Notes: generated from the letters alone by a model not told the origin. Shown: positions 48,271 to 64,000, counted from the first letter of the stretch. The stretch is 64,000 nt of DNA from an uncultured Thermoplasmata archaeon (GCA_963719945.1 CAVRDX010000001.1:736001-800000); one strand, 5' to 3'. Numbers and translations are program-made.

Positions 48271-49347
48271 CTAGAATAATATCCCCTTGCATCGGATCAC
48301 GCGGTTGAGGCCTCTCCGCCCCAACATGCGCATGGACATCCCTAGGAGAGGGTCGCTTGGGAAGAATATGTCGGCCAATCGTCTAGTGGAGAGGGCGGTC
48401 CGCAATGGTTTCCCCATCACTTCTCGCCATCGCGTCTCGTATGCTGCAAGAGAGCACCTGCCGGCCAAGTGTTCAGCGATCGTCTTGCCGGCGATCCTGC
48501 CAGCTATCATCGCCGTCGGGATGCCCCCACCGTTCGTCGCCATCACCTGTCCCGCAGCGTCGCCAACCAACAACACATTCTCCCGTACAGTGGATGAAGC
48601 AGGGCCGGACATCGGGACCAGTCCCATCGTGATGTCCCCACATTCACAATCCAGCGTTGTCAGGAATTTGTCGAAGACCGCTCTCGGGCTACCTTTTAAG
48701 ATGCCTGGGTTGAATCCGACCCCGACATTCGCACCCCCTGACTTCGGGATTATCCAAGCATACCCACCAGGAGCGACACTGCCGAAGTACATCTTTACGA
48801 CCGGTTCGAACGAACCCTTCACCTGACAGGTCACAGCAGGGTAGTTTATGCGGGAATCACCCATCCCGATTTGTCTCATCGTCTTTGAATTGGGACCATC
48901 CGCGCCGACTATCACCTTCGCCTTGATGTCTCCAAGGGTCGTCCGTGCGATACCGTTTTCGATGGATAGCAGGGACGAATCTGTGCTAAGCCTAGACCCG
49001 GCGTTGATCGCCAGGTCGACCAGGTGCTTGTCGAAGAATCGCCGATCGAGGACATGCGATTTGAACCCACACCTGTATGCTTTTCCCCGCGGTGATATCA
49101 GGTCGATACTGTCGCAAGTCCCTTTGACAAGGTGCGATGGTAGCGTGAAGAGTTCCTGGAGATTCTGACCTTCGGGGAATATCGTATACATCTCATCGGT
49201 GTCTGGAAGGAGTTCCCCGCATTGCACAGGGTAGCCTATCTCCCGTCGTCTATCAATCATCAGAACGTCGATGCCCTCGGACGCACAGAACCTCGCGGTT
49301 GTGCTCCCTGCGGGACCTGCACCGATAATTAGGACGTCGACGTCCAA
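48271..49347 (-). CDS. Geranylgeranyl reductase family flavoprotein (MenJ-like candidate)
   Basis: GAGPAGS, PVQCGE, DR..FD, GADG, GYAWIIPK, GDAAG....NGGGI. Confidence 0.9.
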   Translation of the reverse strand: MDVDVLIIGAGPAGSTTARFCASEGIDVLMIDRRREIGYPVQCGELLPDTDEMYTIFPEGQNLQELFTLPSHLVKGTCDSIDLISPRGKAYRCGFKSHVLDRRFFDKHLVDLAINAGSRLSTDSSLLSIENGIARTTLGDIKAKVIVGADGPNSKTMRQIGMGDSRINYPAVTCQVKGSFEPVVKMYFGSVAPGGYAWIIPKSGGANVGVGFNPGILKGSPRAVFDKFLTTLDCECGDITMGLVPMSGPASSTVRENVLLVGDAAGQVMATNGGGIPTAMIAGRIAGKTIAEHLAGRCSLAAYETRWREVMGKPLRTALSTRRLADIFFPSDPLLGMSMRMLGRRGLNRVIRCKGILF

Positions 49348-50057
49348 GGTTTCTTCCCCCTGGTCATCGTGGCGCCCTTTAGCTTGAGGAACTCGGTCTT
49401 GACCTCGGAGAAGCCCTGTTGAGATAGCAGGTTCTCATAGATCGATGTGAATCCGAAGGCCTTGTAGGTATCCACGAAAGTCATGTAAGGGTCTCGCTTC
49501 AGCCGATGGTATGACGCAGGGTTCACAGCTATCCTCGCGAGCTTCGGAACGACGTGTTTGACATGTATATCCAGCAGCTTCGCGAGCGGACCTGGCGGCG
49601 GCTTTGCGACATCCACTATACGGACCTCGCCTCCATCCTTCAGGACTCTATGTATCTCGGAGATACCCTCACCCTTGTCGAAGAAATCCCTGAATGAGAA
49701 TACGCAGAACACCTTATCCACGCTCTGATCTGCCAGTGGTATCTTCTCCCCCACCGCTCTGACCAACTGTATGCGATTCTGGTCCAGCAGCTCCCTCGAA
49801 TAGTTCGCGAGTTCGCCGGATGGTTCAATGCAATATATCGATTTGGAGATGAGGTGTCTGGCGAATGAGCCTGGTCCTGAACCTACCTCGAGGACCACAT
49901 CATCGGGCTTTGCGTAAGCGGCCACCTCCTGGCGCCATCTGTCAGCAAGTCCGAATGTGATCAACTGGTTCACTCGATCATAGTCTGGGGCGATCTCCTC
50001 GAGCGCCTCGACGACCTCCGTCCAATGCTTCCCGGACATACCATTAGCATCCATCAT
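49329..50057 (-). CDS. UbiE/MenG-like demethylmenaquinone methyltransferase
   Basis: IAPDYDRVN..ITFG....WR, SAM motif EVGSGPG, IP..D.S.D, EI.RVLK.GG. Confidence 0.85.
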   Translation of the reverse strand: MMDANGMSGKHWTEVVEALEEIAPDYDRVNQLITFGLADRWRQEVAAYAKPDDVVLEVGSGPGSFARHLISKSIYCIEPSGELANYSRELLDQNRIQLVRAVGEKIPLADQSVDKVFCVFSFRDFFDKGEGISEIHRVLKDGGEVRIVDVAKPPPGPLAKLLDIHVKHVVPKLARIAVNPASYHRLKRDPYMTFVDTYKAFGFTSIYENLLSQQGFSEVKTEFLKLKGATMTRGKKPWTSTS

Positions 50058-50068
50058 AATCGAGCCAC

Positions 50069-51052
50069 CTACGAATCTCTGTTCAAGACCCTGTTGACGA
50101 GCTCTCTCAGGGATCTGCTGTATTTGGTGTCTGGCAATGAGCCAAGGTGTTGCAACGCCTCAAGGGCATAATATTCGCCCATGCCCTTCGCCTTATCTAT
50201 CGCCCCGGATTCTATGACGAGATCGATACAACGCCTGACCTTCTCTGCGGGTGGGTCATCCATCTTGACCAGTTCGAGTATCTCTTTGCGTGCAGTCTCC
50301 GAATCCTTCATAGCCAATAGGGATGGCAGAGTCAGATACCCCTCTTTCAGATCCATCCCGACCGGTTTGCCAGTGCGCTTCTCATCACCTATGAAATCCA
50401 GGATATCATCAGCGATCTGGAATGCGATTCCCATATTGAGGCCATAGCTCGCCAGATTGTTGATGTCCTCGAGAGTCCCACCGGCCAGATAGGCCCCGAC
50501 CATCGCACCCGCCCTCAAAGGTTCCGCAGTCTTGCGCTCCATCACCTTCAGGTAGGTGTCCACAGTCATGTCCTGAGTGTGCCGATATTTATTCTGGAGT
50601 ATCTCACCTTCAGCGAGCTTCGCGCAAGCATCCGCCGTTGTCTGGACGACATTCTTGTCGAAGAGTCCTCCGAGAGAGAAAGCCTTTACGAAAAGGAAAT
50701 CACCAGTCACGATCGCGCTATGTAACCCGTACTTCTTGTAGACCGTCTCGCGACCTCGTCTAGCAAGTCCGCCATCGTTTATATCGTCATGAATCAACGT
50801 CGCGGAATGTATAAGCTCGAAAGCCGCTGCGATATCAGCAATCTTCTGAATATCCTCTCCGCCTAGGCTCTTGAATGACAGTATCGTCACGGTAGGTCGG
50901 AGCCGCTTTCCGCCCGCATCGATCACGTGCAATGCGGCCTCGGTGAGATTCTTCTCGCCAGAAGCGACCATCTGACGAAGCTTCTCATCGACCAAGCTAA
51001 GCTCCTCAGAGATGCCGAAATCCCAAGGAGATGGACTCATCAATATTCGCAT
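50069..51052 (-). CDS. Long-chain polyprenyl diphosphate synthase
   Basis: GGKRLRP, FARM ATLIHDDIND..RRG with small residues upstream (long-chain type), KTA, FQIADDILD, GKP.G.D..EG..TLP. Confidence 0.92.
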   Translation of the reverse strand: MRILMSPSPWDFGISEELSLVDEKLRQMVASGEKNLTEAALHVIDAGGKRLRPTVTILSFKSLGGEDIQKIADIAAAFELIHSATLIHDDINDGGLARRGRETVYKKYGLHSAIVTGDFLFVKAFSLGGLFDKNVVQTTADACAKLAEGEILQNKYRHTQDMTVDTYLKVMERKTAEPLRAGAMVGAYLAGGTLEDINNLASYGLNMGIAFQIADDILDFIGDEKRTGKPVGMDLKEGYLTLPSLLAMKDSETARKEILELVKMDDPPAEKVRRCIDLVIESGAIDKAKGMGEYYALEALQHLGSLPDTKYSRSLRELVNRVLNRDS

Positions 51053-51173
51053 ATGCCCCAATCTCTACTTAACCCTAGTGGTTACTGGCTCTTGGCTGTA
51101 GATGATGGCCAGAAGAGGTTTGGAGGTCCGTATTATTTATATCCAAGTTCGACCAGTTGCATATTGAACTCTT

Positions 51174-52106
51174 ATGAACGAACCAAGCGAGAAGCCATCC
51201 AAACTAAAGATATGGATCGCGGAACTGAGAGTGCCGTTCTTTACAGCTGCAATTGTACCCGCGATATTTGGAACGGCCATCGCGTGGCAGTCTGAAAACA
51301 ATTTTAATGCCATACTCTTCGGTCTTGTGACTCTTGGTGTAATTCTCGCTCACGCAGCAACTAACGTCATCAATGATTACTTCGACTACAAGAGCGGGAC
51401 GGACATATCCAACAAGAACAGAACCCCGTTCAACGGAGGAAGCCCGTTCCTTGTGGAAGGTGTGCTTACACCTAGAGAGGTGTACACCGCCGCTATGCTG
51501 ATGTTTGGCGCATGCGCAGTCATCGGATTCTATCTCGCCTATGCAAGCACTTGGCTCGTAATCCCGCTTGGAATAATCGGCATAGGATTCGGATACTTCT
51601 ATACGATCCCTAAATCAGGACTGGCCGCAAAGGGGGTAGGAGAGGTAGCCCTCGGATTGGGTTTCGGTCCATTGATCGTGGAAGGCGCCTATCTCGTCCA
51701 GACCCAGACATTCAGCATTCCAGTCTTACTCGCGGGAGTCCCTGTGGGACTCTTCATCGGGCTTGTATTGTTCATAAATCAGTTCCCGGACATGGAGGCT
51801 GATGGAGCAGCGGGCAAGAATCATTGGGTCGTCAGGATGGGACTGGCCAAGGCGGCATCGTGGTACGTCGGAACAATGGTCGCGGCCTTCGCTATGATAG
51901 TTGCATTGTCCGCGCTCAATGTGTACCCGCTATACGCACTACTCGCGCTCGCACCATTGCCTCTTGCGTTCAAAGCAATCAAGATAGTACGTGAGAAGTG
52001 CGAGTCCGTAAGAGAACTGGTCCCTGCACAGGCGATGACAATACAGATACACCTCATCACAGGACTGCTGCTCTCTGCTGGGATAGTAGTTGCGGGTTTC
52101 CTGTAA
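51174..52106 (+). CDS. menA: 1,4-dihydroxy-2-naphthoate polyprenyltransferase
   Basis: N.INDYFDY.SGTD, GGS, YT, GVGE, NQFPD.EAD...GK; multiple TM helices. Confidence 0.88.
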   Translation: MNEPSEKPSKLKIWIAELRVPFFTAAIVPAIFGTAIAWQSENNFNAILFGLVTLGVILAHAATNVINDYFDYKSGTDISNKNRTPFNGGSPFLVEGVLTPREVYTAAMLMFGACAVIGFYLAYASTWLVIPLGIIGIGFGYFYTIPKSGLAAKGVGEVALGLGFGPLIVEGAYLVQTQTFSIPVLLAGVPVGLFIGLVLFINQFPDMEADGAAGKNHWVVRMGLAKAASWYVGTMVAAFAMIVALSALNVYPLYALLALAPLPLAFKAIKIVREKCESVRELVPAQAMTIQIHLITGLLLSAGIVVAGFL

Positions 52107-52123
52107 TCAATGACAGGTCAATA

Positions 52124-53626
52124 TCAGAACCCTATCGGCAGGTTGGTGAATGCCTCCGCTGCCCGCAGACACAGATCCATGACCGCGTCAAAGTATATGC
52201 CCAGCACGACCGTCATCACGAGCGATATGCCAATCGCAACTGTCGTGAATCTCGGCACCTTGACCTTCTCCTCGGAACCTTTCTCCATGTACATGTACTT
52301 GATCACGCGTGCATAATAGTACAGTGACAACGCGCTGTTCAGGACCGCAGCCACGGCCAGCCATATCAACCAGCTCGGTCCCGGGTCACTTGAGCCGTAT
52401 ACCGCAGACGAGAAGAGCACGAACTTGCTTGCGAACCCCGCCAGCGGAGGTATCCCGGCCAGAGAGAATAGGAATATCATCATCGAGATCGCAAGGAATG
52501 GAGAACGCTTGCCGAGGCCTTTGAAATCATCCAATTTCTCCCCTATGGCACATGACGCCATGCCAGCGACGACCATGAAAGCGCCAGACTTCATGAACGC
52601 ATGCGTCAGGATATGGAATAGCGCACCCGCGACCGCATACTGCGTGCCGACAGGGAGTGCGATCAGGATGTAACCAGCCTGGGCGACCGATGAATATGCC
52701 AGCATACGCTTGATGTTCGTCTGCGATACCGCGATCAGGTTGCCCACGGTCATCGTCAGGATAGCCAATATCGCAATAGCTACATCCCAATCGGATTTCG
52801 TCACTATCAGACCGATCAGAAACACTTTGAAGAACGCTGCGAAGCCCATCTTCTTGGATGCCGCTGCGAGCAGGCCAGATATAGGTGTCGGCGCACCCTC
52901 GTACACATCGGGCGCCCACATATGGAAGGGCACGAGCGCCACCTTGAAGCCGAATCCTGCCAGGACGAGCACAGTGGCCAGCAATGCGAACGATTCAGAG
53001 CCTTCGAAAGCGGTGAAGGACGCATCCATCGCAGGACCCATAGCGGAAATGTTCGTCGTGCCGGCGATGCCGTAGAACAGAGAGATCGCGAATAGAGTGA
53101 GCGCGGACGAGAATCCACCTATTATGAAATACTTCGTCGCAGCCTCAGCTGAACGCTTCTCGTGCTTTCTGAATCCTGAGAGTGCGAATGATGATATGCC
53201 GGCGATCTCCAAACCTACGAATATGACGAACAGGTCGGCGGCGCTAGCCACCAGAGTCATTCCTGCGATTGCGAGGAGAATCAATGCATAGTATTCTCCC
53301 TGGTTCCTATCAGTCTTGATGAAGTCCATCGAGGTGAGCACGACTATAATGCCAACTGCGAGGAAAACCAGCATGAACAGTCCGGAGAACAGGTTGATCT
53401 CGACGAGAGCGATGCTGCTGCCAGGAGGGATCCAAGAATCCGTGAATAGCCAGGTCACGACCGCAGCCATGATGGCAATCATCGGGATCAGTGACGCGAA
53501 AGCCACCACCCTCTTGTCCTTGAACAGGTAATCCAGCCCAGGCATCAGAGTCGCAAATAGTATCAGCAATAGCTGCGGAAGGAACGGCTCCAGGGTATTC
53601 AGTATCTCCAATTCATCCACCTCCAT
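52124..53626 (-). CDS. nuoN: Complex I-like (Fpo/Nuo) subunit N
   Basis: GEYY, EAATKYF, FKVALVPFHMWAPDVYEGAPTP, KRMLAYSS, AGIPPLAGF.SK; true start may be a few codons downstream. Confidence 0.95.
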   Translation of the reverse strand: MEVDELEILNTLEPFLPQLLLILFATLMPGLDYLFKDKRVVAFASLIPMIAIMAAVVTWLFTDSWIPPGSSIALVEINLFSGLFMLVFLAVGIIVVLTSMDFIKTDRNQGEYYALILLAIAGMTLVASAADLFVIFVGLEIAGISSFALSGFRKHEKRSAEAATKYFIIGGFSSALTLFAISLFYGIAGTTNISAMGPAMDASFTAFEGSESFALLATVLVLAGFGFKVALVPFHMWAPDVYEGAPTPISGLLAAASKKMGFAAFFKVFLIGLIVTKSDWDVAIAILAILTMTVGNLIAVSQTNIKRMLAYSSVAQAGYILIALPVGTQYAVAGALFHILTHAFMKSGAFMVVAGMASCAIGEKLDDFKGLGKRSPFLAISMMIFLFSLAGIPPLAGFASKFVLFSSAVYGSSDPGPSWLIWLAVAAVLNSALSLYYYARVIKYMYMEKGSEEKVKVPRFTTVAIGISLVMTVVLGIYFDAVMDLCLRAAEAFTNLPIGF

Positions 53627-55118
53627 ACAGCCTTAGAAGGATCTCTACAGCTGGCGTGATCTTCGAGAATATCAGCGACGGGAAGACCCCGAAGACCGCG
53701 ATGAGGACAATCAATATGGCAACGGGCACTCCTTCGTACCATGTGACATCCTTGAGGTGGGATGTATCGATCTTGTCAGTCATGGGCCCGAACATCGACT
53801 TCTGCAACGCCCACAGATAGTAAGCAGCAGTGATTGCAACAGCAATTACCGGGATGAATACCCACATGGACCATTTCAAGAAAGTCGCGTAGAACACCAT
53901 GAACTCCGCTGCAAAGCTGACCAGACCTGGTAGGCCGAGCGACGCGAGGAATCCTACGGTGATCATCGTTGCCGCGATGGGCATCCTCTTGGCCAGTCCT
54001 CCGAGCTGAGGAATCAATCTCGTGCCGCACTTGTGCTGCACAACACCGCACATCATGAACAATACCGCGGTTACCAGGCCGTGGGCGAACATCTGGAAGA
54101 CCCCGGCGACGATACCGACCTCACCCAGCGTCGCGAAGCCCAGAAGAACGAAGCCCATGTGACTTATCGACGAATATGCAACCATCTTCTTCAGGTCCTT
54201 CTGTGCCAGACACAATATGGCACCATAGAGGATGCTCACGACAGCAATGATGGCCATAAGCACGGAGAGGCTCTCGGCTCCTTGAGGCAGGGAGGTCATC
54301 GCGACCCTGATGATACCATATCCGCCCATCTTGAGCAGCAGGCCGGCCAGCAGCACGCTACCGGCAGTCGGTGCTTCTACATGTGCATCAGGAAGCCAGG
54401 TGTGGAACGGCACCATCGGGAGCTTCACACCGAAGCCGAAGAACATCGCAGCGAAGATGGCCACCTGCACACCCTTCGCGAAGCCCACGCTCACGCCTGC
54501 GATCGCTTCCATGCTGAAGGTCTGCAACCCAGCCTCGAAGTACATCGCCATGATGGAGATGAGCAGAGCCAGGCTCGCGACATGTGTGTATATGAAGAAT
54601 TTGATCGCAGCGTAGTCCTTCCTCGGACCGCCCCAGATGCCGATCATGAAGTACATCGGTATCAGGACGACCTCCCAGAACACATAGAACATGAAGTAGT
54701 CCAATGAAACGAAAACGCCAAGGACTCCGACCTCAAGAATGAGCATGAGACCGAAGTACTCCTTCGGACGCTTCTCCGTATCCCAGGAGAATATGATGGA
54801 CAGCGTGCATAGTAGGGTCGTGAGCACGAACAGTGGAAGGCTGATGCCATCCAAACCGACGATGTAGTTGATCCCGAGAGTGCTGATCCATGCATGTTCC
54901 TCGTAGAACTGATAATCGGAGTGATAGCCGGTCGCTGACGGCGATGGATCTGTCGCGAACTCGTATGCGACCAACAGCGACAGTATCAGCGCTGCGACCG
55001 AGAATGCGAGGGCGATGTATTTCGCATACTTCTCATACCTGCCCAACGAGAACGTGATGAACGCTCCGATGAGAGGAAAGAGTATTGTCAGAGAAAGCAC
55101 CGGCACACCTTCGAGCAT
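53613..55118 (-). CDS. nuoM: Complex I-like subunit M
   Basis: GLDGIS, FYVFWE..LIP, AAIKFFIYT, VKLP.VPFHTWLPDAHVEAPT, LLKMG.YG, AYSSISHMG. Confidence 0.96.
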   Translation of the reverse strand: MLEGVPVLSLTILFPLIGAFITFSLGRYEKYAKYIALAFSVAALILSLLVAYEFATDPSPSATGYHSDYQFYEEHAWISTLGINYIVGLDGISLPLFVLTTLLCTLSIIFSWDTEKRPKEYFGLMLILEVGVLGVFVSLDYFMFYVFWEVVLIPMYFMIGIWGGPRKDYAAIKFFIYTHVASLALLISIMAMYFEAGLQTFSMEAIAGVSVGFAKGVQVAIFAAMFFGFGVKLPMVPFHTWLPDAHVEAPTAGSVLLAGLLLKMGGYGIIRVAMTSLPQGAESLSVLMAIIAVVSILYGAILCLAQKDLKKMVAYSSISHMGFVLLGFATLGEVGIVAGVFQMFAHGLVTAVLFMMCGVVQHKCGTRLIPQLGGLAKRMPIAATMITVGFLASLGLPGLVSFAAEFMVFYATFLKWSMWVFIPVIAVAITAAYYLWALQKSMFGPMTDKIDTSHLKDVTWYEGVPVAILIVLIAVFGVFPSLIFSKITPAVEILLRLYGGG

Positions 55119-55124
55119 CGTCAA

Positions 55125-57083
55125 TCACCCTCCCCATGGCAATATGTACAAAACGAGTATCAACAGAAGGCAGATGCCAACCACGATGAGCCCTGCATAG
55201 CGCTGCACGTTGCCGTTCTGCAGTCTCCTTATGAAGTTCCCGGTATTGCCACCCAGGAACGAGAATCCGTTCACAATGCCATCTATGACATATCTGTCGA
55301 AAGCGTCTGCGACCAGCGACAGTCCATATACGACCTTCACGGCGAAGTCGTCATAGAACTTGCTGATATACCATCTGTTCTCAAGGGCGCGCTGGACCTT
55401 GCCGTTGAATCCGGTGGAGAACATGCTCCTATCGAATCCAGGAGTGAGGTAGATCTTCCTCGCGAGCATTATCCCGACGACTGCGAGCGTCAGCGACACA
55501 TAGGTCAGCGGATCGGAGAATATCTCGATCGCAACATCGGCCAGTGATTCGTGTGCTGCACCATGCAGCAGCCCCTCGATCGACAATTCCATGAATCCTT
55601 TGAATCCATCACCGATGAACAAGACGAATCCGGATGTCATGGCCAGCCCTGCAAGTATCATCAGCGGGACGGTCATTATCCTGGGCGACTCGTGTGCATG
55701 ATAATCGGACCTCGGCTCTCCTGCGAACGTCATGAACCACATCCGGAACATGTAGAACGCGGTCATGAACGCGGTGATTATCCCCATCAGCCACAGCAGG
55801 AAGAAGACGGAATCGAATTCCCCCGCATGCCAAACGGCTGCCAGCACCTCATCTTTGCTCCAGAAACCGGAGAACGGCGGTATGCCGGATATGGCTAACG
55901 CTCCGATCAGCATCGTGAGCGATGTGATCTTCATCTTCTTGCCTAAACCACCCATGAGTCGCATGTCGTTCGTGCCTATCGCGTGTATCACGCTTCCGGC
56001 GCAAAGGAACAGAAGAGCCTTGAAGAACGCATGGTTCATCAGATGGAATGTAGCAGCTGCATATCCTCCCGGAGAATTCGCATAGATGACCAGATAGCCG
56101 CCGGCACCCAATCCCAGAATCATGTATCCGAGCTGGCTGATCGTACTGTATGCAAGAACGCGCTTGATATCGTTCGCTGCCAATGCGACCGTCGCGGCCA
56201 ATATCGCGGTTACTCCGCCGATCACTGCAACGAACAGAAGGCTCTCAGGAGCATGAATGAGCAGTGGATACGATCTAGCTACGAGATACACTCCTGCCTT
56301 GACCATCGTTGCCGCATGAATGAGGGCCGATACCGTGGTGGGACCCTCCATCGCATCCGGCAACCATTCGTGCAGAGGGAATTGTGCGCTCTTTCCAATG
56401 GCTCCACCGAATATCAGCGCGGTAGCGAGTATCATCATATCCGTGGGTACTGCAGCGGCCCCAGATTCCGAGAAGAGTGTCTCGAAGTCGAGGCTCCCCA
56501 CATACTTGAACAGGATTATGATGCCCGCCATGAACATTATATCGCCCACACGGGTGACTATGAAAGCACGCTTGGCGGCACTGGCTGCGGACGGTTTCTC
56601 GTACCAGAAACCTATGAGAAGGTATGAACAAAGACCGACTAGCTCCCAGAATATGAACATCTGGAGATAGTTGTCGGATATCACCAGACCGAACATCACC
56701 GATATGAAGAGGGTTATCTCGGCGTAGTAGCGCCTCCTGCCCTCCCCTTCCTCGCGCATGTAGCCGCCGGAGTAGATCACTACAAGGGTGCCCACTATAG
56801 AAACGACCACTAGCATGAGCGCGGTCAACTGGTCTATCCATACGCCGAACTCGAGAGAGAAGTCCCCCACTTCCAGCCACTTGAACTTGGGGGTATCTGT
56901 CGTGAGGGTCTCACCGTTCAACACGCTCCATACGACCAATAGGGATAGCACCAACGAGCACAGGGTACCTGCGATGGCGTAGACTGCCCCTGATTCCCAC
57001 CAGAGTGTGCGTTTCGGCAGGAGCGCGATGAGTATGAACGCCACGAATGGGAAGACTGGGATCAGCCACGCGTACTCGAGCAC
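55125..57083 (-). CDS. nuoL: Complex I-like subunit L
   Basis: WELVGLCSYLLIGFW, GKSAQFPLH.WLPDAMEGPTTVSALIHAATMV, HAFFKALLFL.AG, long C-terminal helix. Confidence 0.97.
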   Translation of the reverse strand: MLEYAWLIPVFPFVAFILIALLPKRTLWWESGAVYAIAGTLCSLVLSLLVVWSVLNGETLTTDTPKFKWLEVGDFSLEFGVWIDQLTALMLVVVSIVGTLVVIYSGGYMREEGEGRRRYYAEITLFISVMFGLVISDNYLQMFIFWELVGLCSYLLIGFWYEKPSAASAAKRAFIVTRVGDIMFMAGIIILFKYVGSLDFETLFSESGAAAVPTDMMILATALIFGGAIGKSAQFPLHEWLPDAMEGPTTVSALIHAATMVKAGVYLVARSYPLLIHAPESLLFVAVIGGVTAILAATVALAANDIKRVLAYSTISQLGYMILGLGAGGYLVIYANSPGGYAAATFHLMNHAFFKALLFLCAGSVIHAIGTNDMRLMGGLGKKMKITSLTMLIGALAISGIPPFSGFWSKDEVLAAVWHAGEFDSVFFLLWLMGIITAFMTAFYMFRMWFMTFAGEPRSDYHAHESPRIMTVPLMILAGLAMTSGFVLFIGDGFKGFMELSIEGLLHGAAHESLADVAIEIFSDPLTYVSLTLAVVGIMLARKIYLTPGFDRSMFSTGFNGKVQRALENRWYISKFYDDFAVKVVYGLSLVADAFDRYVIDGIVNGFSFLGGNTGNFIRRLQNGNVQRYAGLIVVGICLLLILVLYILPWGG

Positions 57084-57084
57084 T

Positions 57085-57405
57085 CTACCACCTCAGGATG
57101 TTTATCTTGTCGACATCGATCGTCTGATATCTTCTGTAGACCGATAGTATGATAGCCAGACCCACCGCGACCTCTGCGGCGGCGATGGCTATGGAGAACA
57201 GTGTGAACACCTGACCGGTCGCGTCAGGGACTGTATGCAGGACGCTATGATAGCTGCTGAACATCACGAGGTTGATGTTCGCCGCATTGAGCATTATCTC
57301 TATGCACATGAGCACGACGATGGCGTTCTTCCTGGACACTACGCCGTAGGCGCCCACGACGAACAGGAGCGAGCTGAATACGAGCCAGTACTCGATCGGG
57401 ATCAT
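57085..57405 (-). CDS. nuoK: Complex I-like subunit K
   Basis: LMCIEIMLNAANIN, AAAEVAVGLAI, C-terminal LRW. Confidence 0.95.
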   Translation of the reverse strand: MIPIEYWLVFSSLLFVVGAYGVVSRKNAIVVLMCIEIMLNAANINLVMFSSYHSVLHTVPDATGQVFTLFSIAIAAAEVAVGLAIILSVYRRYQTIDVDKINILRW

Positions 57406-57647
57406 TCCTTCTCCTCCTTTGCGAGAAAGATCCCGCCCAGCATTGCGACGAACAGGAGCACGCCTATCATCAGGACGACAAGAGCGTATCCGCTCGAATT
57501 GTCCGTCCCAAACATCGACCATGCGACGTCCTCGTTCGTGACTGCATCCATCTCACCTTCTGGCCAGGACACGCCGGTCACGACCAGAACAAAGAGCAAC
57601 GCGAGCAGAAGCAAAGACGAGCCTTTGATGATCGAATTGAGCTTCAT
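57402..57647 (-). CDS. nuoJ: Complex I-like subunit J, C-terminal half (FpoJ2-like)
   Basis: Two TM helices, LLFVAMLGGIFLAK; lies between J1 and K. Confidence 0.85.
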   Translation of the reverse strand: MKLNSIIKGSSLLLLALLFVLVVTGVSWPEGEMDAVTNEDVAWSMFGTDNSSGYALVVLMIGVLLFVAMLGGIFLAKEEKE

Positions 57648-57907
57648 CGGTCGCCACTCCCCATTATCTCGCGCTTGGTCAGCATTATTCCGAACAGGAT
57701 GACGACTACGACTGCACCCACATACACGAGTATCTGAATTATAGCTACGAATTCGGCATTCAGCATGATATACATGCAAGCGACAGCAATGAAGCAGGTG
57801 GCCAGCGCCACTACCCCATGGATTATCTCCCTGGCTCTGACCACAAGAAGAGCAGAGACCAACGCCGACGCAGAAAGGAACAGGAATATGAACATCTCCC
57901 AGGTCAC
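57644..57907 (-). CDS. nuoJ: Complex I-like subunit J, N-terminal half (FpoJ1-like)
   Basis: LNAEFVA..QILVYVGAV....LFGIML. Confidence 0.92.
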   Translation of the reverse strand: MTWEMFIFLFLSASALVSALLVVRAREIIHGVVALATCFIAVACMYIMLNAEFVAIIQILVYVGAVVVVILFGIMLTKREIMGSGDR

Positions 57908-58815
57908 TTCTTCACCCCCGGCATCTCGATCGCTCCGAACTTACATGCTTTGAAACATCGGCCACAGCCGACACATTTCTCGAACACGAAGACCGCGCGT
58001 TTCTTTGGCTTCCCCTTCTTGCCATCCTTGAGGGTCTTCTCGCTTCCAGGTATCTCCATCATGTAAATGGCATCTGCAGGGCACGCGCGCGCACATGCTG
58101 AACAACCTGTGCATTTGGATAGCAGCAATTTCGGCTCGGGCATCTCGAAGTAGGACTCGTATACCTCAGTCGAAACGAGGGCTTTCTCAGGACATGCAAC
58201 GATGCACTTCTCGCATGATGTGCACTTGGCGAGGTTGATCTCGGGCTTCTTCTTGTCGACCTTCTCGATGGGCATCATGGCAATGCACATCTCAGGGCAC
58301 TCACCCGCGCATTTCTCGCAGCTGGTGCACTTGGACATATCCAAGTATGGCAGCTTGCGGGACTGGCGCTCCTCCTTGAATGTAGAGGCGAATGCATCAT
58401 CACGAATGTCCTTCGGGCTGAGAACGAAGCTCTCGCGCTTGCGATCGGCCAACTCATATTCGGTCGTCAAGTGCAGCGCGACAGTAGGACATACTTCGGC
58501 ACAGAATCCGCAGAACAAGCATCTGCCTATGTCGACACCCGGCCTTTCTATCTTGCCGAGCTCCGGATCCTCAATCTTCTCAAGCCACATGCATTCGTTT
58601 GGACAGATATTGAGACAGTTACCGCAACCGATGCATCTCTTGAAATCGAGAGTGTGTTTCCCCCTGTATACCTGCGGCAACACCAGTTTCTCATGAGGAT
58701 AGAGAACTGTGTTGGGCCTGCCAAGTATGAACGAGCGCACAAACTGACGACCGGTGCGCATCATCGGCCTCACGACATACCCGAAGAAGCTCACCTTGCC
58801 TCGTTCCCTAACCAC
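57904..58815 (-). CDS. nuoI: Complex I-like subunit I fused to a polyferredoxin extension (6 x [4Fe-4S] motifs)
   Basis: T..YP.E, RG.H, CIGCGNC...CP, RCLFCGFCAEVCP, plus four more CxxCxxCxxxC motifs. Confidence 0.93.
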   Translation of the reverse strand: MVRERGKVSFFGYVVRPMMRTGRQFVRSFILGRPNTVLYPHEKLVLPQVYRGKHTLDFKRCIGCGNCLNICPNECMWLEKIEDPELGKIERPGVDIGRCLFCGFCAEVCPTVALHLTTEYELADRKRESFVLSPKDIRDDAFASTFKEERQSRKLPYLDMSKCTSCEKCAGECPEMCIAMMPIEKVDKKKPEINLAKCTSCEKCIVACPEKALVSTEVYESYFEMPEPKLLLSKCTGCSACARACPADAIYMMEIPGSEKTLKDGKKGKPKKRAVFVFEKCVGCGRCFKACKFGAIEMPGVKK

Positions 58816-59941
58816 TGAACCACCCCATCGTCTTGAATGTGGCTGCTATGAGCAGGTTGAGGACGGCCAATGGCAGGAGCCGTTTCCATCCGAGCTCCAA
58901 TATCTGGTCGACACGGACCCTTGGAAGCGACCATCTCATCCATTCGATGACTACGAACACGGTGTAAGCCTTGATCAGGAACCATATCTCGTCCGGTATC
59001 AGGGATGGCCCCTGCCATCCACCAAGAAACAGCGCGGTGGCGAGCGCACCACCAGCGTATCCTCGAAGATATGATGTCATCATGAAGAATCCGAAACGCA
59101 TGCCGCTGTATTCAGTGGTCCATCCCTCGACGAGCTCGGCCTCCGCTTCGGGCAGGTCGAACGGGGTCACCTCCACCTCGGCTGCTATGCATACGATGAA
59201 TACAACCAGACCTATGAACAGGGGTATCGCGAACCATATGTCGTGCTGGGCATCGACTATCCCCACGAAACTGAAACTTCCAGAGAGCAGAATCACGCTG
59301 GCGACAGTCAACAACAGTGGTATCTCATAGCTCATCATCTGAGCGGCGGACCTCATCCCACCTATCAGAGTGAACTTGTTGTTGGAAGACCAGCCTGCGA
59401 GCAGAATGCAGAATGGCGCTATTGCGAATGCGGCGAACGCGAAAAGTACTCCAGCGGACACGAACTCTCCAGATTCGTTAGTCGCTATGCCGAAGTTGGG
59501 GCTCAACGGTATCGTCGCGAGTATCAGGAATGAAGAGCCTATGAATAGGACCGGAGCGAGAAGGAACCCGAGCCTGTCAGCCTTGGCGGGGACGATTATC
59601 TCCTTGACGAACAGCTTCATGCCGTCCGCGAGGTTCTGGAGCCAGCCACCGATCCTGTAACCCACGTAATAAGGACCATAGAAGTCGAATATCCTGCCGC
59701 TGAGTTTTCTATCCAGCCATATGAAGTTGAGGACGTTGATGAGCGCGACTATGATGACTATGAGCGATTCCAGCATTATGGTCATCACCGCGGTGTGACC
59801 GTGGGACCCTGCGAAGTCACCGACGTCGGTGAAGAAATCACCGAAGTACCAGGGAAGCACATCCCCGAGCCAGTACCATAGGTGGTTGACCAGGTCCACG
59901 AGCCACACAATTATGCCATTGCAGAATTGGAAAAGGTTCAT
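58808..59941 (-). CDS. nuoH: Complex I-like subunit H
   Basis: GP, ADGMKLFVKE, GWSSNNKF...GGMR.AAQ..SYE, PFDLPEAEAELVEG...EYSG, PRVR.DQ. Confidence 0.96.
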   Translation of the reverse strand: MNLFQFCNGIIVWLVDLVNHLWYWLGDVLPWYFGDFFTDVGDFAGSHGHTAVMTIMLESLIVIIVALINVLNFIWLDRKLSGRIFDFYGPYYVGYRIGGWLQNLADGMKLFVKEIIVPAKADRLGFLLAPVLFIGSSFLILATIPLSPNFGIATNESGEFVSAGVLFAFAAFAIAPFCILLAGWSSNNKFTLIGGMRSAAQMMSYEIPLLLTVASVILLSGSFSFVGIVDAQHDIWFAIPLFIGLVVFIVCIAAEVEVTPFDLPEAEAELVEGWTTEYSGMRFGFFMMTSYLRGYAGGALATALFLGGWQGPSLIPDEIWFLIKAYTVFVVIEWMRWSLPRVRVDQILELGWKRLLPLAVLNLLIAATFKTMGWFSG

Positions 59942-59945
59942 GGTC

Positions 59946-61028
59946 TCACCTGTCACACTCCCCGATGCACATGTCCAATCCACCCATTATGGCCACGACA
60001 TCGGCCACCTTGTAGCCTACAAGCATACGAGGGGCTGCTGATACGGTTATGAAGATGGGACTACGGATCTTGAGGCGATACGGCTTGTCTGAGCCGTCTC
60101 CGACGACATACATCATCCCTTCACCCCTGGGATCCTCGACCCTGCCCAAGCCAGTGCCGATGGGTGCGTTCCTCGGAGCGACCGTGCGCCATTTGCCTGC
60201 GGGCATGCGCTGGATCGCCTGTCGGATGATCTTACAGCACTCCCACATCTCATCCATTCTCACACGATAACGCGCAAAACAGTCACCTTCAGGTCGTGAG
60301 CAGACTTCGAAATCGAGGTCCGAGTAGACGGAATAAGGCCGGTCCTTGCGCATATCATACTTCACACCACTCGCCCTTAATGGCGGGCCAGTGACACCAA
60401 GGTCGAGAGCGTCTTCCTTCGTGAGGAGGCCTACGTCGACATTCCTCATCATGAATATCTTCGAACCCTCGTACAGATCCTCGTACTCCTTCAGACGAGT
60501 CTCGATGTAATCGCATGCACGCAACGCCTCCCGGTCCCAGTTCGGCGGCAGGTCGTGCGCGACCCCGCCTATACGAGGATAGTTGTATGTCAATCGCGAA
60601 CCCGAAAGGCTCTGGAGAAGGTCCACGAGGACCTCCCTGTCCCTCATGGAGTAGATGAATCCCGCCATCATTCCGAGGTCCACGGCATATGCCGCGAGCC
60701 ACATCAGATGGGAGGCCAGTCTCTGCATCTCAATGGCGATCACTCGGATGTACTCTGCCCGCTCAGGGACCTCTATGCCCATCAGGTCCTCCACCGTCAT
60801 GCAGTACAGGTGACTCCATGTGAGCGAAGAACCGTAGCATAGCCTGTCCGCGAGCGGAATTATCTGCGGATAGGTCCTGTTCTCGCAGATCTTCTCGATG
60901 CCGCGGTGGAGATAGCCGACCTCGGGTTCCGCATCGACGATGGTCTCGCCATCTACCTTGACGCGGAGGTTCCACAGACCATGCGTCATCGGGTGCTGCG
61001 GTCCCATGTTGATCCACATTTCGGCCAT
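59946..61028 (-). CDS. nuoD: Complex I-like subunit D (FpoD-like)
   Basis: NMGPQHPMTHG, GYLHRGIEK, DRLCY, GVTGP.LRASG, E.PRGE, PYRLKIRSP, C-terminal ECDR. Confidence 0.96.
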   Translation of the reverse strand: MAEMWINMGPQHPMTHGLWNLRVKVDGETIVDAEPEVGYLHRGIEKICENRTYPQIIPLADRLCYGSSLTWSHLYCMTVEDLMGIEVPERAEYIRVIAIEMQRLASHLMWLAAYAVDLGMMAGFIYSMRDREVLVDLLQSLSGSRLTYNYPRIGGVAHDLPPNWDREALRACDYIETRLKEYEDLYEGSKIFMMRNVDVGLLTKEDALDLGVTGPPLRASGVKYDMRKDRPYSVYSDLDFEVCSRPEGDCFARYRVRMDEMWECCKIIRQAIQRMPAGKWRTVAPRNAPIGTGLGRVEDPRGEGMMYVVGDGSDKPYRLKIRSPIFITVSAAPRMLVGYKVADVVAIMGGLDMCIGECDR

Positions 61029-61034
61029 CCATGA

Positions 61035-61544
61035 TCACATCCTGAAATCCTTGCGCAACGGGTGATACATCGTATCCTTCGGCAACAGTATCCTTTCCAG
61101 TTTAGGATGGTCCTTGAACACTATGCCCATGAGGTCATACGATTCTCTCTCGTTCCAATTCGCTCCGCCCCAGATCGATGAAATGGAATCGACTGTCGGG
61201 TCTTCCTTGGGCAGCTTCACGATGAGCTCCAGCATGATGTTGGATTGATAGGAATTGATGTGATAGACTATCTCGAACCTGTCAGGGTAGTCAACCGCGG
61301 ATATCATGGAGAGGTGCTCGAATCCAAGGTCATTTCTCAGGAGTCTGCATGCATCATGGAGACTGTCGCGAGCGATGATGGTGCGTATGAGTCCATCCCT
61401 GACCCGCTCAGACCCCTCGACCGACTTGCCGAACGCGTCGCTGATCGTCCGGAGCACATGCTCCTCAGGGTCCTCGCCTATCGTCAACGGGGCTCTTTCG
61501 ATGTTCCCCGTAGGGTCCTGGTTGCCTCTTCCCCCTCCCCTCAT
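61035..61544 (-). CDS. nuoC: Complex I-like subunit C
   Basis: ISAVDY, YH, ANWNERESYDLMGI.F.DHP.L.RILL, HPLRKDF; start uncertain. Confidence 0.95.
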   Translation of the reverse strand: MRGGGRGNQDPTGNIERAPLTIGEDPEEHVLRTISDAFGKSVEGSERVRDGLIRTIIARDSLHDACRLLRNDLGFEHLSMISAVDYPDRFEIVYHINSYQSNIMLELIVKLPKEDPTVDSISSIWGGANWNERESYDLMGIVFKDHPKLERILLPKDTMYHPLRKDFRM

Positions 61545-61569
61545 ATATGATCCCCTGCTATCTTCTCCA

Positions 61570-62142
61570 TCATCGGCCCGTAAGAAGGCCGCGTTTGTTC
61601 TCCAAGATGATTTTCTGCAATTTCAGGAACCCGTCTATCAACGCCTCTGGCCTAGCCGGGCATCCGGGTATGTAAATGTCGACTGGGATGAAAGTGTCCA
61701 CACCAGGGACTACATTGTAACTCTCCCAGAACGGTCCTCCGGATATCGCACACTCACCCATGGCGATGACCCACTTGGGTTCAGGCATCTGATCGTATAG
61801 CCGCCTGAGAGCAGGCTTCAACTTCTTGCTCACGGGACCGTTGACCAGGAGCACATCGCACTGACGGGGTGTCGATCTGTATATGACCCCCATCCTCTGA
61901 GCGTCGAACCTCGGTGCCGAGGCGACGGCCATCTCCAAGGCACAACACATGATACCGAAATGAAGCGGGTAGATGGAGTTTCTCGTAGCCCAATTGAAAA
62001 AATCCTTGAGCAATAGGTCAAGAGCGCCACCCACGGGTGTCTTCTTGAGGATGACCTCAAGTGTCTCATCGGACCATTTGAGAAAATCCTTTGAGCGGAA
62101 CATCATGACCTGGCCCGCGGAAGGCTTGTCCCCATTGTTCAA
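61570..62142 (-). CDS. nuoB: Complex I-like subunit B
   Basis: CCALEM, PRQ.D, YDQMPEPKWVIAMG.CA.SGG, PVD.YIPGCP.RPE. Confidence 0.96.
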   Translation of the reverse strand: MNNGDKPSAGQVMMFRSKDFLKWSDETLEVILKKTPVGGALDLLLKDFFNWATRNSIYPLHFGIMCCALEMAVASAPRFDAQRMGVIYRSTPRQCDVLLVNGPVSKKLKPALRRLYDQMPEPKWVIAMGECAISGGPFWESYNVVPGVDTFIPVDIYIPGCPARPEALIDGFLKLQKIILENKRGLLTGR

Positions 62143-62498
62143 ATCCAGATTATCTCCTCCTTCTTGAGGGCGTACACGACACCCACGAGAAGAATACCTA
62201 GGAAAGCCAACATCGAGAACTTGGCCATATCGCTTAGGTCAGTGAAGACGAGAGCCCACATGAGCACGAAGACCGTGACCAGGTCGAAGGCGATGAAAAG
62301 GATGGCGTACATATAATACTGGAAATGGAACTGAATCTGCGCCTCACCTATCGGGACTTCACCACATTCGTATGTGGTGGTACCTCGCGGATCGTTCTTA
62401 TCTGGTCTGAGATAGCGCGATAAGAGGAAGACTAGGGCAGGAAGCAAAACCGCTATGACCGCGAATGCAGCGACCCCCATATAGTCCTCTGCGAGCAT
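62139..62498 (-). CDS. nuoA: Complex I-like subunit A
   Basis: YECGE.P.G, FQYY.YAILF..FD, three TM helices. Confidence 0.95.
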   Translation of the reverse strand: MLAEDYMGVAAFAVIAVLLPALVFLLSRYLRPDKNDPRGTTTYECGEVPIGEAQIQFHFQYYMYAILFIAFDLVTVFVLMWALVFTDLSDMAKFSMLAFLGILLVGVVYALKKEEIIWI

Positions 62499-62662
62499 CG
62501 CCCTCGGATTCGCATCAAAGTATTAAGGGTTTTCAGTGTACGGTTCTTAGATTGTGGGCCGTCAGTATCGAATTTTCTTCAATTACTCTGCGCATTTGCA
62601 GCAGATAAGACGCGGAGAATTAGATGAAAGAGGTTTCAGCGACCGATTAGATGATGAAACGT

Positions 62663-63253
62663 CTAGCGGATGCGGATTCCACACCGCGCACAGAATGATG
62701 TATCCGAGGCAATGGTCGAGCCACATGCCGGACATGTGCCACCGACACCTCCTGGCGGAGGTATGAAAGGCGCGGGGCCAGGGGCCGTCTTCGATGCCTT
62801 GGCCTTTTCATCACCCAATATAAAGACGATAACGACGATCACGATGACCACGATTATGACAACCGTGATGATTCCGATGATGAGGACCATCGACAGGGCG
62901 TCCTCGACGTTATCAAGTATATCTATGGTATAGTTCAGATTGACCGTCGTTGTCCCTTCGTTCGCCCATGTGAATGTGTAATCTCCGCTCACTGCAGCCT
63001 CCATCGATCCTGCATCAGATACGGATACTTCATCGACCAGTGCGGTGCCAGTCGGTGAACTGAGGGTAAAATGTAGGTCGTCTTCGCAGTACCAGAGGTA
63101 GGTGATCTCGTCACCCGCACTATAATGGGCCGCGTCAGAATAGCTCGATCCAGGCTGGATGTTTCTGCTAGCATTGGCACTGACCCCCGTCGATGCGCAC
63201 AACACCATCATCAATGCCAACACGGAGCAAGCCAAAATCGGAGCATGTCTCAT
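62663..63253 (-). CDS. Single-pass membrane protein: signal peptide, beta-sandwich ectodomain, TM, Pro-rich linker, zinc ribbon
   Basis: N-terminal signal peptide, G.Y.F.W.N motif, long TM helix, PPPGG, CPACG..FCARCG. Confidence 0.8.
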   Translation of the reverse strand: MRHAPILACSVLALMMVLCASTGVSANASRNIQPGSSYSDAAHYSAGDEITYLWYCEDDLHFTLSSPTGTALVDEVSVSDAGSMEAAVSGDYTFTWANEGTTTVNLNYTIDILDNVEDALSMVLIIGIITVVIIVVIVIVVIVFILGDEKAKASKTAPGPAPFIPPPGGVGGTCPACGSTIASDTSFCARCGIRIR

Positions 63254-63370
63254 GATTTATCCCGATTGATATCGGATTCACGGATATTTAGCAGTTATAG
63301 TCCCTGCAATCCACATCTCGCGCTGTAGTTGGATATGTATTTAGTACGGCCGTCGCAATCTTCGACCGAG

Positions 63371-64000
63371 ATGTCGAGACCAGACCTCGTTTTGCTCCAT
63401 CCACCGAGCGTGATGGATTTCCGAAAGAAGACCATGTTGCTGGGTCCAGTAAGTGACCTTATACCTTCAACACCGGTGTTCGAGATGTATCCGATCGGAT
63501 TCACAACGATGGCGTCCCATCTCGAGTCGAAGGGGTACTCGGTCAGGATAGCAAACATTGCAAACAAGATGCTGTCATCCAACAGATTCAACCCGGACAG
63601 GTTCGTGAAATCCATCGATGCGGGCATGTTCGGAATCGACCTGCACTGGATGCCCCATGTGCAAGGGGCCCTGGAACTGGCGAAGATGGTGAAGAGGCAT
63701 CATCCAGACAGACCAGTTGTGATGGGTGGGTTCAGCTCATCATACTATCACGAAGAGCTCATGGCGAAGCATCCGGAGGTGGATTATGTCCTTAGAGGGG
63801 ATTCCACCGAGGTGCCGCTTGAGAAACTCATTTCCTCCCTGGAGTCGAGGAAATCACTCGAAGACGTCCCGAACCTGACATGGAGGAGAGAGGGGAGTAC
63901 GAAGGTCAACCCCATCACAAATGTGCCGGATACCCTCGACGACATTGAGATAGATTATGGGTTGATGATCCGCAAGGTGCTAAGGTATAGGGATCTGGAC
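63371..64000 (+). CDS. B12-binding/radical SAM protein (Ta0216/TIGR04190-like), N-terminal part
   Basis: Manual translation: MSRPDLVLLHPPSV.DFR...GPVSDLIPSTPVFEMYPIG...FGIDLHW..H.QG...VMGG.SSSYY...DYVLRGDSTE; open to the window end, so absent from the ORF track. Confidence 0.85.
   Translation, partial: MSRPDLVLLHPPSVMDFRKKTMLLGPVSDLIPSTPVFEMYPIGFTTMASHLESKGYSVRIANIANKMLSSNRFNPDRFVKSIDAGMFGIDLHWMPHVQGALELAKMVKRHHPDRPVVMGGFSSSYYHEELMAKHPEVDYVLRGDSTEVPLEKLISSLESRKSLEDVPNLTWRREGSTKVNPITNVPDTLDDIEIDYGLMIRKVLRYRDLD

Follow-up and report, generated by a model that had tools for sequence, protein, structure and literature searches.

The window analyzed here is a stretch of 64,000 nucleotides from an uncultured Thermoplasmata archaeon (GCA_963719945.1), positions 736001–800000 of contig C1 in a 1.78-Mb genome of four contigs that is 87% complete. 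Positions 48271–62498 of the window contain the system under study: a complex I operon and, adjoining it, a putative menaquinone-tail cluster. NuoI shares 73% identity with a protein of "Euryarchaeota archaeon RBG_16_62_10". This metagenome-assembled genome (MAG) was assigned to the order UBA10834 (Zinke et al., 10.1101/2020.03.09.984617), which is Ca. Gimiplasmatales (PMC11264602). The alpha subunit of methyl-coenzyme M reductase (MCR) was found neither in the genome of the window nor in any of the 39 genomes of its family, f1, whereas every genome sampled from the families f6 (35/35), f26 (4/4), f30, and f33 carries it. By exact-sequence matching, f6 corresponds to Methanomethylophilaceae (Ca. 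Methanogranum) and f30 to Ca. Methanomassiliicoccus intestinalis, and the MCR-bearing remainder are Methanomassiliicoccales MAGs. The host is a non-methanogenic relative of these gut methanogens, namely a Ca. Gimiplasmatales-like uncultured Thermoplasmata.

The complex I operon lies on the minus strand and features the following elements, from 5' to 3':

62499–62662, minus strand: intergenic region of 164 nt 5' of nuoA, presumed promoter region as read from the sequence
62139–62498, minus strand: nuoA, 119 aa (PF00507, 95 bits)
61570–62142, minus strand: nuoB, 190 aa, carrying cluster N2 (PF01058 and NF005012, 209 bits)
61035–61544, minus strand: nuoC, 169 aa (PF00329, 138 bits)
59946–61028, minus strand: nuoD, 360 aa (PF00346, 291 bits; NuoD models, 418–439 bits)
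58808–59983, minus strand: nuoH, 391 aa as the longest open reading frame (ORF) (PF00146, 338 bits)
57904–58815, minus strand: nuoI, 303 aa (TIGR01971, 165 bits over residues 30–136; Fer4 matches up to residue 297)
57644–57907, minus strand: N-terminal half of nuoJ (J1), 87 aa (PF00499 positions 1–62)
57402–57779, minus strand: C-terminal half of nuoJ (J2) (PF00499 positions 72–146)
57085–57522, minus strand: nuoK (PF00420, 106 bits, matching residues 46–145 of the longest ORF)
55125–57083, minus strand: nuoL, 652 aa (NF005141, 656 bits, above cut-off)
53613–55124, minus strand: nuoM, 503 aa (PF00361, 254 bits)
52124–53626, minus strand: nuoN, 500 aa (TIGR01770, 372 bits, above cut-off)

All 11 core subunits (A, B, C, D, H, I, J, K, L, M, and N) are thus encoded in one co-directional operon of twelve ORFs, nuoJ being split, and the true start of J2 probably lies downstream of the longest-ORF start. 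The subunit set named in the initial annotation stands in full, since Pfam and NCBIfam place each ORF between 52124 and 62498. The same annotation described the complex as headless. At the operon this is borne out, with no N-module gene within or adjoining it; genome-wide, it covers NuoF (PF01512) and FpoF/FrhB (PF04432), neither of which has a match in the whole genome, and NuoE, NuoG, and FpoO had no separate search. A second complex of the complex I, Mbh, Ech, or Mrp type was not found by tblastn of every subunit against the whole genome. The NCBIfam models specific for Fpo stay below their cut-offs: FpoD with 402 of 600 bits, FpoH with 267 of 475, FpoI with 113 of 180, and FpoL with 611 of 1050.

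Beyond nuoN, the menaquinone-tail cluster consists of one gene on the plus strand and three genes on the minus strand:

51174–52106, plus strand: menA, a MenA-type prenyltransferase of 310 aa (TIGR00751, 107.4 bits; cut-off, 102.15)
51131–51143, plus strand: putative TATA-like box, TATTATTTATAT, read from the sequence, approximately 30–40 nt 5' of the menA ATG
50069–51061, minus strand: pps, a trans-polyprenyl diphosphate synthase of the long-chain type (PF00348, 230 bits)
49329–50057, minus strand: menG, a divergent methyltransferase of the UbiE/MenG family, 242 aa (PF01209, 72.6 bits, above the Pfam cut-off)
48271–49347, minus strand: ggr, a flavoprotein of the geranylgeranyl reductase (GGR) family, 358 aa, candidate side-chain reductase (TIGR02032, 207 bits, above cut-off)

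The operon and menA are convergent, with the nuoN stop at 52124 and the menA stop at 52106, which agrees with the distance of 17 nt reported initially. The divergent arrangement of menA toward the polyprenyl synthase, menG/ubiE, and GGR genes, all three on the minus strand between 48271 and 51061, was likewise described correctly; the spacer between menA and pps measures 112 nt.

The Q-module of the complex has the sequence hallmarks of a quinone reductase, in support of its assignment to the complex I type. NuoB features the tandem-Cys N2 motif HFGIMCCALEM as well as the motifs MGEC and PGCP; two consecutive Cys residues ligating N2 are a signature of complex I and the related NDH complexes (PMC8165549). 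In NuoD, His16, Tyr65, and Asp117 correspond to H38, Y87, and D139 of Thermus thermophilus Nqo4, with an alignment offset of 22. This quinone-site triad is kept in 17 of 17 NuoD sequences of the class, MCR-bearing relatives included, so that it is necessary for a quinone reading and does not discriminate. In the membrane-bound sulfane reductase (MBS), H38 and Y87 are absent (PMC7684303). The nearest solved relatives of NuoD are NdhH of NDH-1 and Nqo4 (E-values of 1e-85 to 1e-93, with NdhH closest at 1e-93); MBS with 1e-65, the membrane-bound hydrogenase (MBH) with 1e-60, and formate hydrogenlyase rank behind them. The comparison with reference systems is composed of the NuoD tree within the class, the NCBIfam scores, and these PDB rankings, in place of a concatenated tree of 11 subunits.

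In addition, two Cys residues of NuoD do not vary among the 17 class sequences: Cys64 in the motif RLCY, which replaces the Asp that usually precedes Tyr87, and Cys354 in the motif DxCxGExDR. As judged by end-anchored offsets and not by residue-level alignment, Cys354 falls on C385 of MbsL and C374 of MbhL, and Cys64 is at most one residue away from C85 of MbsL. Both probably occupy former NiFe-ligand positions. MBS retains two former NiFe-ligand Cys residues, neither of which is needed for its catalysis, and the loss of all four NiFe-ligand Cys residues of the hydrogenase ancestor has been used as a criterion for complex I (PMC7684303). The NuoD of the window may hence be an evolutionary intermediate that joins MBS-like Cys remnants with the quinone ligands of complex I. 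The complex falls outside the MBH/MBS class: it has two of the Cys positions only, and the equivalents of H38 and Y87 and a four-Cys N2 are present.

NuoI extends the usual two-cluster core by two additional 2×[4Fe-4S] ferredoxin domains, resulting in six CxxCxxCxxxC motifs, and carries a Lys-rich loop, KTLKDGKKGKPKKR. Among 39 homologues, 22 of the 24 Cys residues are invariant; the other two are the consensus residue, with a spacing that varies in some sequences. The six-motif architecture is common to approximately 95 protein clusters. It occurs in the families f1 and f2, and NuoI has four motifs in the MCR-bearing and most other Thermoplasmata families. As judged by these motif counts, one extra ferredoxin domain of FpoI is common to all families of the class examined, and the second is specific to the order of the window. 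The AlphaFold (AF2) model of NuoI has a pLDDT of 80.6, and its N-terminal half corresponds to NuoI in experimental structures of complex I. Over the entire length, the PDB entries that match best are the polyferredoxins FwdF (5t5i_F) and FmdF (7bkb_K), at TM-scores that are low (approximately 0.3) because the domain arrangement differs. We infer that the extension acts as a fused ferredoxin dock and wire replacing the missing N-module.

The assignment of MenA is based on the equivalog cut-off of the profile model and on the Asp-rich motifs of the UbiA family, NVINDYFDYKSGTD and DMEADGAAGKNHW, which follow the patterns NDxxDxxxxxxD and DxxxDxxxGK. Its top NCBIfam matches are 1,4-dihydroxy-2-naphthoate (DHNA) polyprenyltransferases throughout, and activity on DHNA is predicted. 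The true start of the polyprenyl synthase (ELIHSATLIHDDIND) is probably the ATG three codons in. Small residues at positions −4 and −5 before the first DDxxD motif are the rule for long-chain polyprenyl synthases (C30 or longer). The synthase of the window carries Ala and Thr at −5 and −4 (SATLIHDDIND), and its best NCBIfam match is HepT, below the cut-off of that model. A paralogue on contig C3 has Phe at −5 (NFTLVHDDVMD) and scores best on IdsA/geranylgeranyl diphosphate (GGPP) synthase models. A reading of the cluster as lipid genes, comprising a GGPP synthase, a digeranylgeranylglyceryl phosphate synthase (DGGGPS), and a lipid GGR, was ruled out by separate copies elsewhere. The lipid pathway has its own synthase on C3, the other UbiA of the genome (C1:840025) is of the DGGGPS type, and two of the three GGR paralogues lie outside the cluster, which leaves the cluster free for a quinone tail.

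In most genomes of genus g2 of the family, a close orthologue of the window MenA is absent, and the only MenA-like match has an E-value of 1e-22 to 1e-30; E-values of the MenA query do not separate orthologues from MenA-like paralogues in g2, f6, and f19. Genus g2 features NrfD-type quinol-interacting subunits in 10 of 14 genomes and SdhCD in all of them, and it may use a different prenyltransferase.

The genome encodes two enzymes of types that are normally coupled to quinol or phenazine. The first is a complete sdhC-sdhD-sdhA-sdhB set with two Sdh_cyt anchors on the minus strand at C1:597077–600334, whose SdhA matches both the forward (Sdh) and the fumarate-reductase models. Sdh_cyt is present in all 39 genomes of the family, in f2 (3/3), and in the further families with MenA, namely f15 (6/7), f21 (4/5), f23 (7/7), and f29 (2/2), and it was found in none of the 40 MCR-bearing genomes of the class sample. 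The second is an HdrE/NarI-like membrane protein of six helices, with its true start probably at MATDGY, next to an HdrD/DsrK-like CCG protein of 449 aa (C1:858151–860540, minus strand). The HdrE-like protein occurs in 36 of 40 family genomes; Methanomassiliicoccales are reported to lack HdrE (PMC7374477). This set of enzymes is consistent with a short anaerobic chain that has fumarate and/or a disulfide as its terminal acceptor.

The operon probably encodes, though with a good deal of reserve, an ion-pumping ferredoxin:(naphtho)quinone oxidoreductase, that is, an 11-subunit complex I without an NADH or F420 head. Low-potential electrons would enter via NuoI, whose four extra [4Fe-4S] clusters and Lys-rich loop would form a built-in polyferredoxin wire; the presumed donor is free ferredoxin or a docked ferredoxin-reducing enzyme. 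From there, electrons would pass through N6a and N6b to the tandem-Cys N2 in NuoB and on to a membrane quinone, putatively a naphthoquinone, which would be reduced at the His/Tyr/Asp site in NuoD. NuoL, NuoM, and NuoN would pump ions, which the initial annotation had taken to be protons. The adjoining genes would assemble the quinone: the long-chain synthase, the MenA prenyltransferase, the UbiE C-methyltransferase, and the GGR as side-chain reductase, acting on a ring precursor (DHNA or similar) that would be imported or come from an undescribed route. The quinol would be reoxidized by SdhCDAB, probably in the direction of a fumarate reductase, and by the HdrE-like cytochrome b with the HdrD-like disulfide reductase. 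The initial annotation had read the complex as a ferredoxin:menaquinone oxidoreductase. The tandem Cys of NuoB, the NuoD triad, SdhCDAB, and the HdrE-like cytochrome b speak for that reading, and the lack of a known ring pathway speaks against it.

Several further observations weigh on the negative side. MqnA/D was found in none of 41 family genomes and is confined within the class to f19 (30/31), f20, f17, and f31. MenB is likewise absent from all 41 family genomes and above cut-off in 0 of 281 class genomes. MenD is not above cut-off in the genome of the window, where the best match reaches 61 bits against 244 and is probably an acetolactate synthase. Neither of the known routes can therefore supply the naphthoquinone ring. 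Bacteria have been described that retain the late menaquinone steps alone and take up DHNA or quinones from outside (PMC5738691, PMC9704088, PMC10746273), and salvage of a ring precursor is the simplest reading here, with an undescribed pathway or another aromatic substrate as possible alternatives. In addition, the UbiE-like protein is divergent and stays under the NCBIfam cut-offs (99 of 158 bits for TIGR01934 and 100 of 216 for NF001244), and the quinone-site triad is just as well conserved in relatives that carry MCR and have no reported quinone. Cytochrome bd was found in 0 of 41 family genomes, COX1 was not found in the genome of the window, nor NrfD in its genus. The genome of the window is 87% complete. 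The class samples used for the MenB count and for NuoD identities include two unpublished f11 genomes, G098 and G212, and no statement depends on either.

The crotonase/enoyl-CoA hydratase family has no match at E ≤ 1e-20 in 35 f1 genomes or in f2, f6, f26, and f30, and most other Thermoplasmata families carry several matches. The clade of these five families appears to lack β-oxidation enzymes altogether.

The location of the menaquinone-type genes beside the operon, on which the initial annotation had built, is confirmed as such and is no independent evidence of a functional link. Genera g1, g3, and g4 are collinear over approximately 30 kb, in the order DUF2797…UppS, Lrp, AlkD, then the divergent genes for an HdrD-like protein, MobB-FeS, and a B12-binding radical SAM protein, and then nuoA-N, menA, pps-menG-ggr, and PIN. 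Since unrelated genes are equally conserved over this region, synteny within the family was rejected as a sign of function. The pair pps-ggr immediately follows nuoN in f2, f33, f30 (Ca. M. intestinalis), f26, and f6 (Ca. Methanogranum), and in f11 in the reversed order ggr-pps. The block TiaS-like-UppS-radical SAM-…-nuoA-N-pps-ggr-PIN is collinear even with Ca. M. intestinalis and Ca. Methanogranum. The adjacency is common to the methanogens and thus ancestral; as judged by gene order, it is inherited collinearity and not a lineage-specific association, which also counts against the quinone reading. Within f1, menA and menG are insertions into this ancestral order, and a single genome of f2 carries menG without menA. 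Families f15 and f21 have a unit of ggr, in part menG, and pps, divergent from menA, that is located away from nuo. The pair pps-ggr accompanies menA, with or without menG, in this second setting, which suggests that it is functionally tied to menA/menG.

Further features surround the operon. Upstream of nuoA and divergent from it are genes for a B12-binding radical SAM protein of 582 aa, a MobB-FeS protein of 245 aa, and the HdrD-like protein of 385 aa (C1:799329–803157, window positions 63329–64000 and on). A radical SAM gene just upstream of nuoA also occurs in methanogen families; a role in lipid or quinone methylation would be a guess. Between this gene and nuoA (window positions 62663–63253, minus strand) lies a gene for a small membrane protein that has one transmembrane pass and ends in a zinc ribbon; it is weakly conserved (34–57% identity) and absent in genus g3. 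Families f15, f21, f23, f25, f27, and f29 feature a second operon type with two copies of nuoM and a separate NuoD clade (99/99 support). At several loci of this type, nuoB and/or nuoI were not detected, and genome G047 has nuoA and nuoB on the opposite strand. In genome G288 (four contigs, 68% complete), nuoH, nuoL, PIN, and the HdrD-like gene on contig C3 each appear in several tblastn pieces, which could be assembly frameshifts or real decay.

The complex is orthologous to the headless Fpo-like complex of Methanomassiliicoccales, to which the initial annotation had likened it. For NuoD, the identity amounts to 62–69% with MCR-bearing f33, f30, and f26 and to 53% with f6, and in the within-class maximum-likelihood tree it groups with these four families, apart from the clade of f15, f21, f23, f25, f27, and f29. 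The complexes of M. luminyensis and Ca. M. intestinalis (PMC4153887, PMC7374477) share the 11 subunits, the split J, which is listed for Methanomassiliicoccales as a split fpoJ (PMC4153887), and the ferredoxin-extended I. They also share the lack of FpoF and, at the operon, of FpoO, and the flanks, with a B12-binding radical SAM gene upstream and pps-ggr-PIN downstream. In contrast, the host of the window has no MCR, its NuoI has six Fe-S motifs instead of four, menA and menG are inserted, and SdhCDAB, the HdrE-like cytochrome b, and a gene-linked HdrD are present.

This orthology favors the foremost alternative, which has been put forward for Methanomassiliicoccales. Here, the complex would be a quinone-independent ferredoxin:disulfide oxidoreductase whose electrons go straight to an HdrD-like protein bound at the Q-module. 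The menA cassette would then serve only Sdh/Frd and the HdrE-like enzyme, or have another role. The HdrD-like gene of 385 aa, with 2×[4Fe-4S] and two CCG domains, is located at C1:802000–803157, 3.5 kb upstream of nuoA, a position kept across genera g1, g3, and g4 as well as family f2, and this also weighs against a quinone as the acceptor. The protein is the best orthologue of the HdrD of the methanogens, with 47–54% identity over the full length. Published models for these lineages combine the Fpo-like complex with HdrD (10.1101/2020.03.09.984617; PMC7374477). However, HdrD of the methanogens is not linked to fpo, lying approximately 105 kb away in Ca. M. intestinalis, so that the linkage of nuo and HdrD in the window may be plain collinearity. 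We know of no structure that shows a contact between Fpo and HdrD. No MCR is present in the host, and thus no turnover of the heterodisulfide CoM-S-S-CoB. Unlike in the methanogens (PMC7374477), an HdrE-like anchor stands beside another HdrD paralogue, which is the usual quinol-coupled arrangement. Direct transfer to HdrD is hence considered rather unlikely, because heterodisulfide metabolism is lacking here and quinone-type partners are present.

The contrast with the methanogens may itself be smaller than assumed, since they carry the same tail-building genes. The initial description of the complex as a respiratory version of the Methanomassiliicoccales machinery holds insofar as the complexes are orthologous and the host family lacks MCR. 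These methanogens have been described as devoid of a membrane electron carrier, a premise of the initial annotation that fails at the gene level. In 4 of 4 MCR families examined, the synthase behind fpoN is of the long-chain type with a GGR alongside, which equals the arrangement of the window without menA and menG (L070:15393–19426 in Ca. M. intestinalis, L079:15641–19216, L072:15276–18875, and L069:15203–19302). In MCR-bearing Ca. Methanogranum (G079 C1:784134–785805), a MenA-like protein reaches 108.4 bits on TIGR00751 and is followed 14 nt on by UbiE (PF01209, 183 bits); a similar MenA-like/UbiE pair occurs in a methanogen of f26 (G180, L051:8429–10025). The window MenA has matches in 34 of 35 f6 genomes, at E-values that do not tell orthologues from paralogues there. 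Like the genome of the window, the MCR-bearing genomes have neither MqnA/D nor MenB. A limited literature search found no link between the energy metabolism of Methanomethylophilaceae and menaquinone. The long-chain synthase and GGR behind fpoN, the MenA-like/UbiE pair, and the full quinone-site triad in MCR-bearing genomes allow for a wider and tentative reading. Ca. Gimiplasmatales and the methanogenic Methanomassiliicoccales, gut Methanomethylophilaceae included, may all build a prenylated, partly saturated naphthoquinone with a head group from salvage or from an undescribed pathway, and this carrier instead of a bound HdrD would be the acceptor of the headless Fpo-like complex. We regard this as possible, though not likely.

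Less probable still is a complex that runs in reverse, with quinol (such as that formed when SdhCDAB oxidizes succinate) and the ion gradient driving the reduction of ferredoxin for CO2 fixation and 2-oxoacid synthases. The parts list fits this equally, the direction of Sdh/Frd is not readable from sequence, and Wood–Ljungdahl and acetogenic capacities have been proposed for Ca. Gimiplasmatales (PMC11264602). However, no high-potential terminal oxidase or other strong source of proton motive force was found in the genome; the polyferredoxin tail carries no directional information. Sulfur or thiol chemistry of the MBS kind in the pocket instead of quinone reduction is very improbable: Cys64 and Cys354 of NuoD, invariant in the 17 class sequences, are near the two NiFe-ligand Cys residues kept by MBS, but those are dispensable for catalysis in MBS (PMC7684303), which lacks H38 and Y87 and has a three-Cys proximal cluster where the complex of the window has the H38/Y87 equivalents and a four-Cys N2.

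Read as a ferredoxin:quinone oxidoreductase, the complex belongs to the known 11-subunit complex I-like enzymes and is not a new category. The bacterial complexes of anaerobes such as Desulfitobacterium hafniense (PMC11238625) and the cyanobacterial and chloroplast NDH-1 (6hum, 7eu3) likewise lack the N-module, with ferredoxin as presumed or proven donor and menaquinone or plastoquinone as acceptor. Those systems use free ferredoxin and accessory docking subunits, whereas the dock and wire are apparently fused to NuoI here, and the NuoD of the window differs by keeping two Cys residues at probable former NiFe-ligand positions. The Methanosarcina chain from Fpo via methanophenazine to HdrDE resembles the proposed one in its complex I-like pump, its lipid-soluble, prenylated carrier whose tail is partly saturated, and its cytochrome b-anchored reductase of the HdrD type. 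It differs in that the window's host has no FpoF, does not reach the FpoD/H/I/L models, has a MenA-type prenyltransferase without a phenazine link, and has no methanogenesis. Gut and oral bacteria that use DHNA (PMC5738691, PMC9704088, PMC10746273) share the retention of MenA and MenG with a missing ring pathway; an archaeal case was not found in a limited search of the literature. The polyferredoxins FwdF and FmdF of formylmethanofuran dehydrogenase supercomplexes are comparable as [4Fe-4S] chains that act as a wire between enzymes, but the proposed wire of the window forms part of NuoI and hence of a membrane pump.

For the non-methanogenic sister lineages of the seventh methanogen order, the findings support a short chain of anaerobic respiration, running from ferredoxin via complex I and a naphthoquinone to a fumarate reductase or an HdrED-like enzyme. 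Zinke et al. (10.1101/2020.03.09.984617) modeled energy conservation by the Fpo-like complex and HdrD, and a quinone is mentioned neither there nor in PMC11264602. The proposed chain gives a concrete picture of what is lost or rewired upon gain or loss of methanogenesis. It raises the prospect of quinone-ring auxotrophy in archaea, that is, of cross-feeding of DHNA-like compounds, as well as of a complex I with a ferredoxin wire fused to NuoI and of a NuoD that combines probable MBS-like Cys remnants with the quinone ligands of complex I. Should the methanogens rely on such a carrier as well, the accepted view of how they conserve energy would have to be revised.

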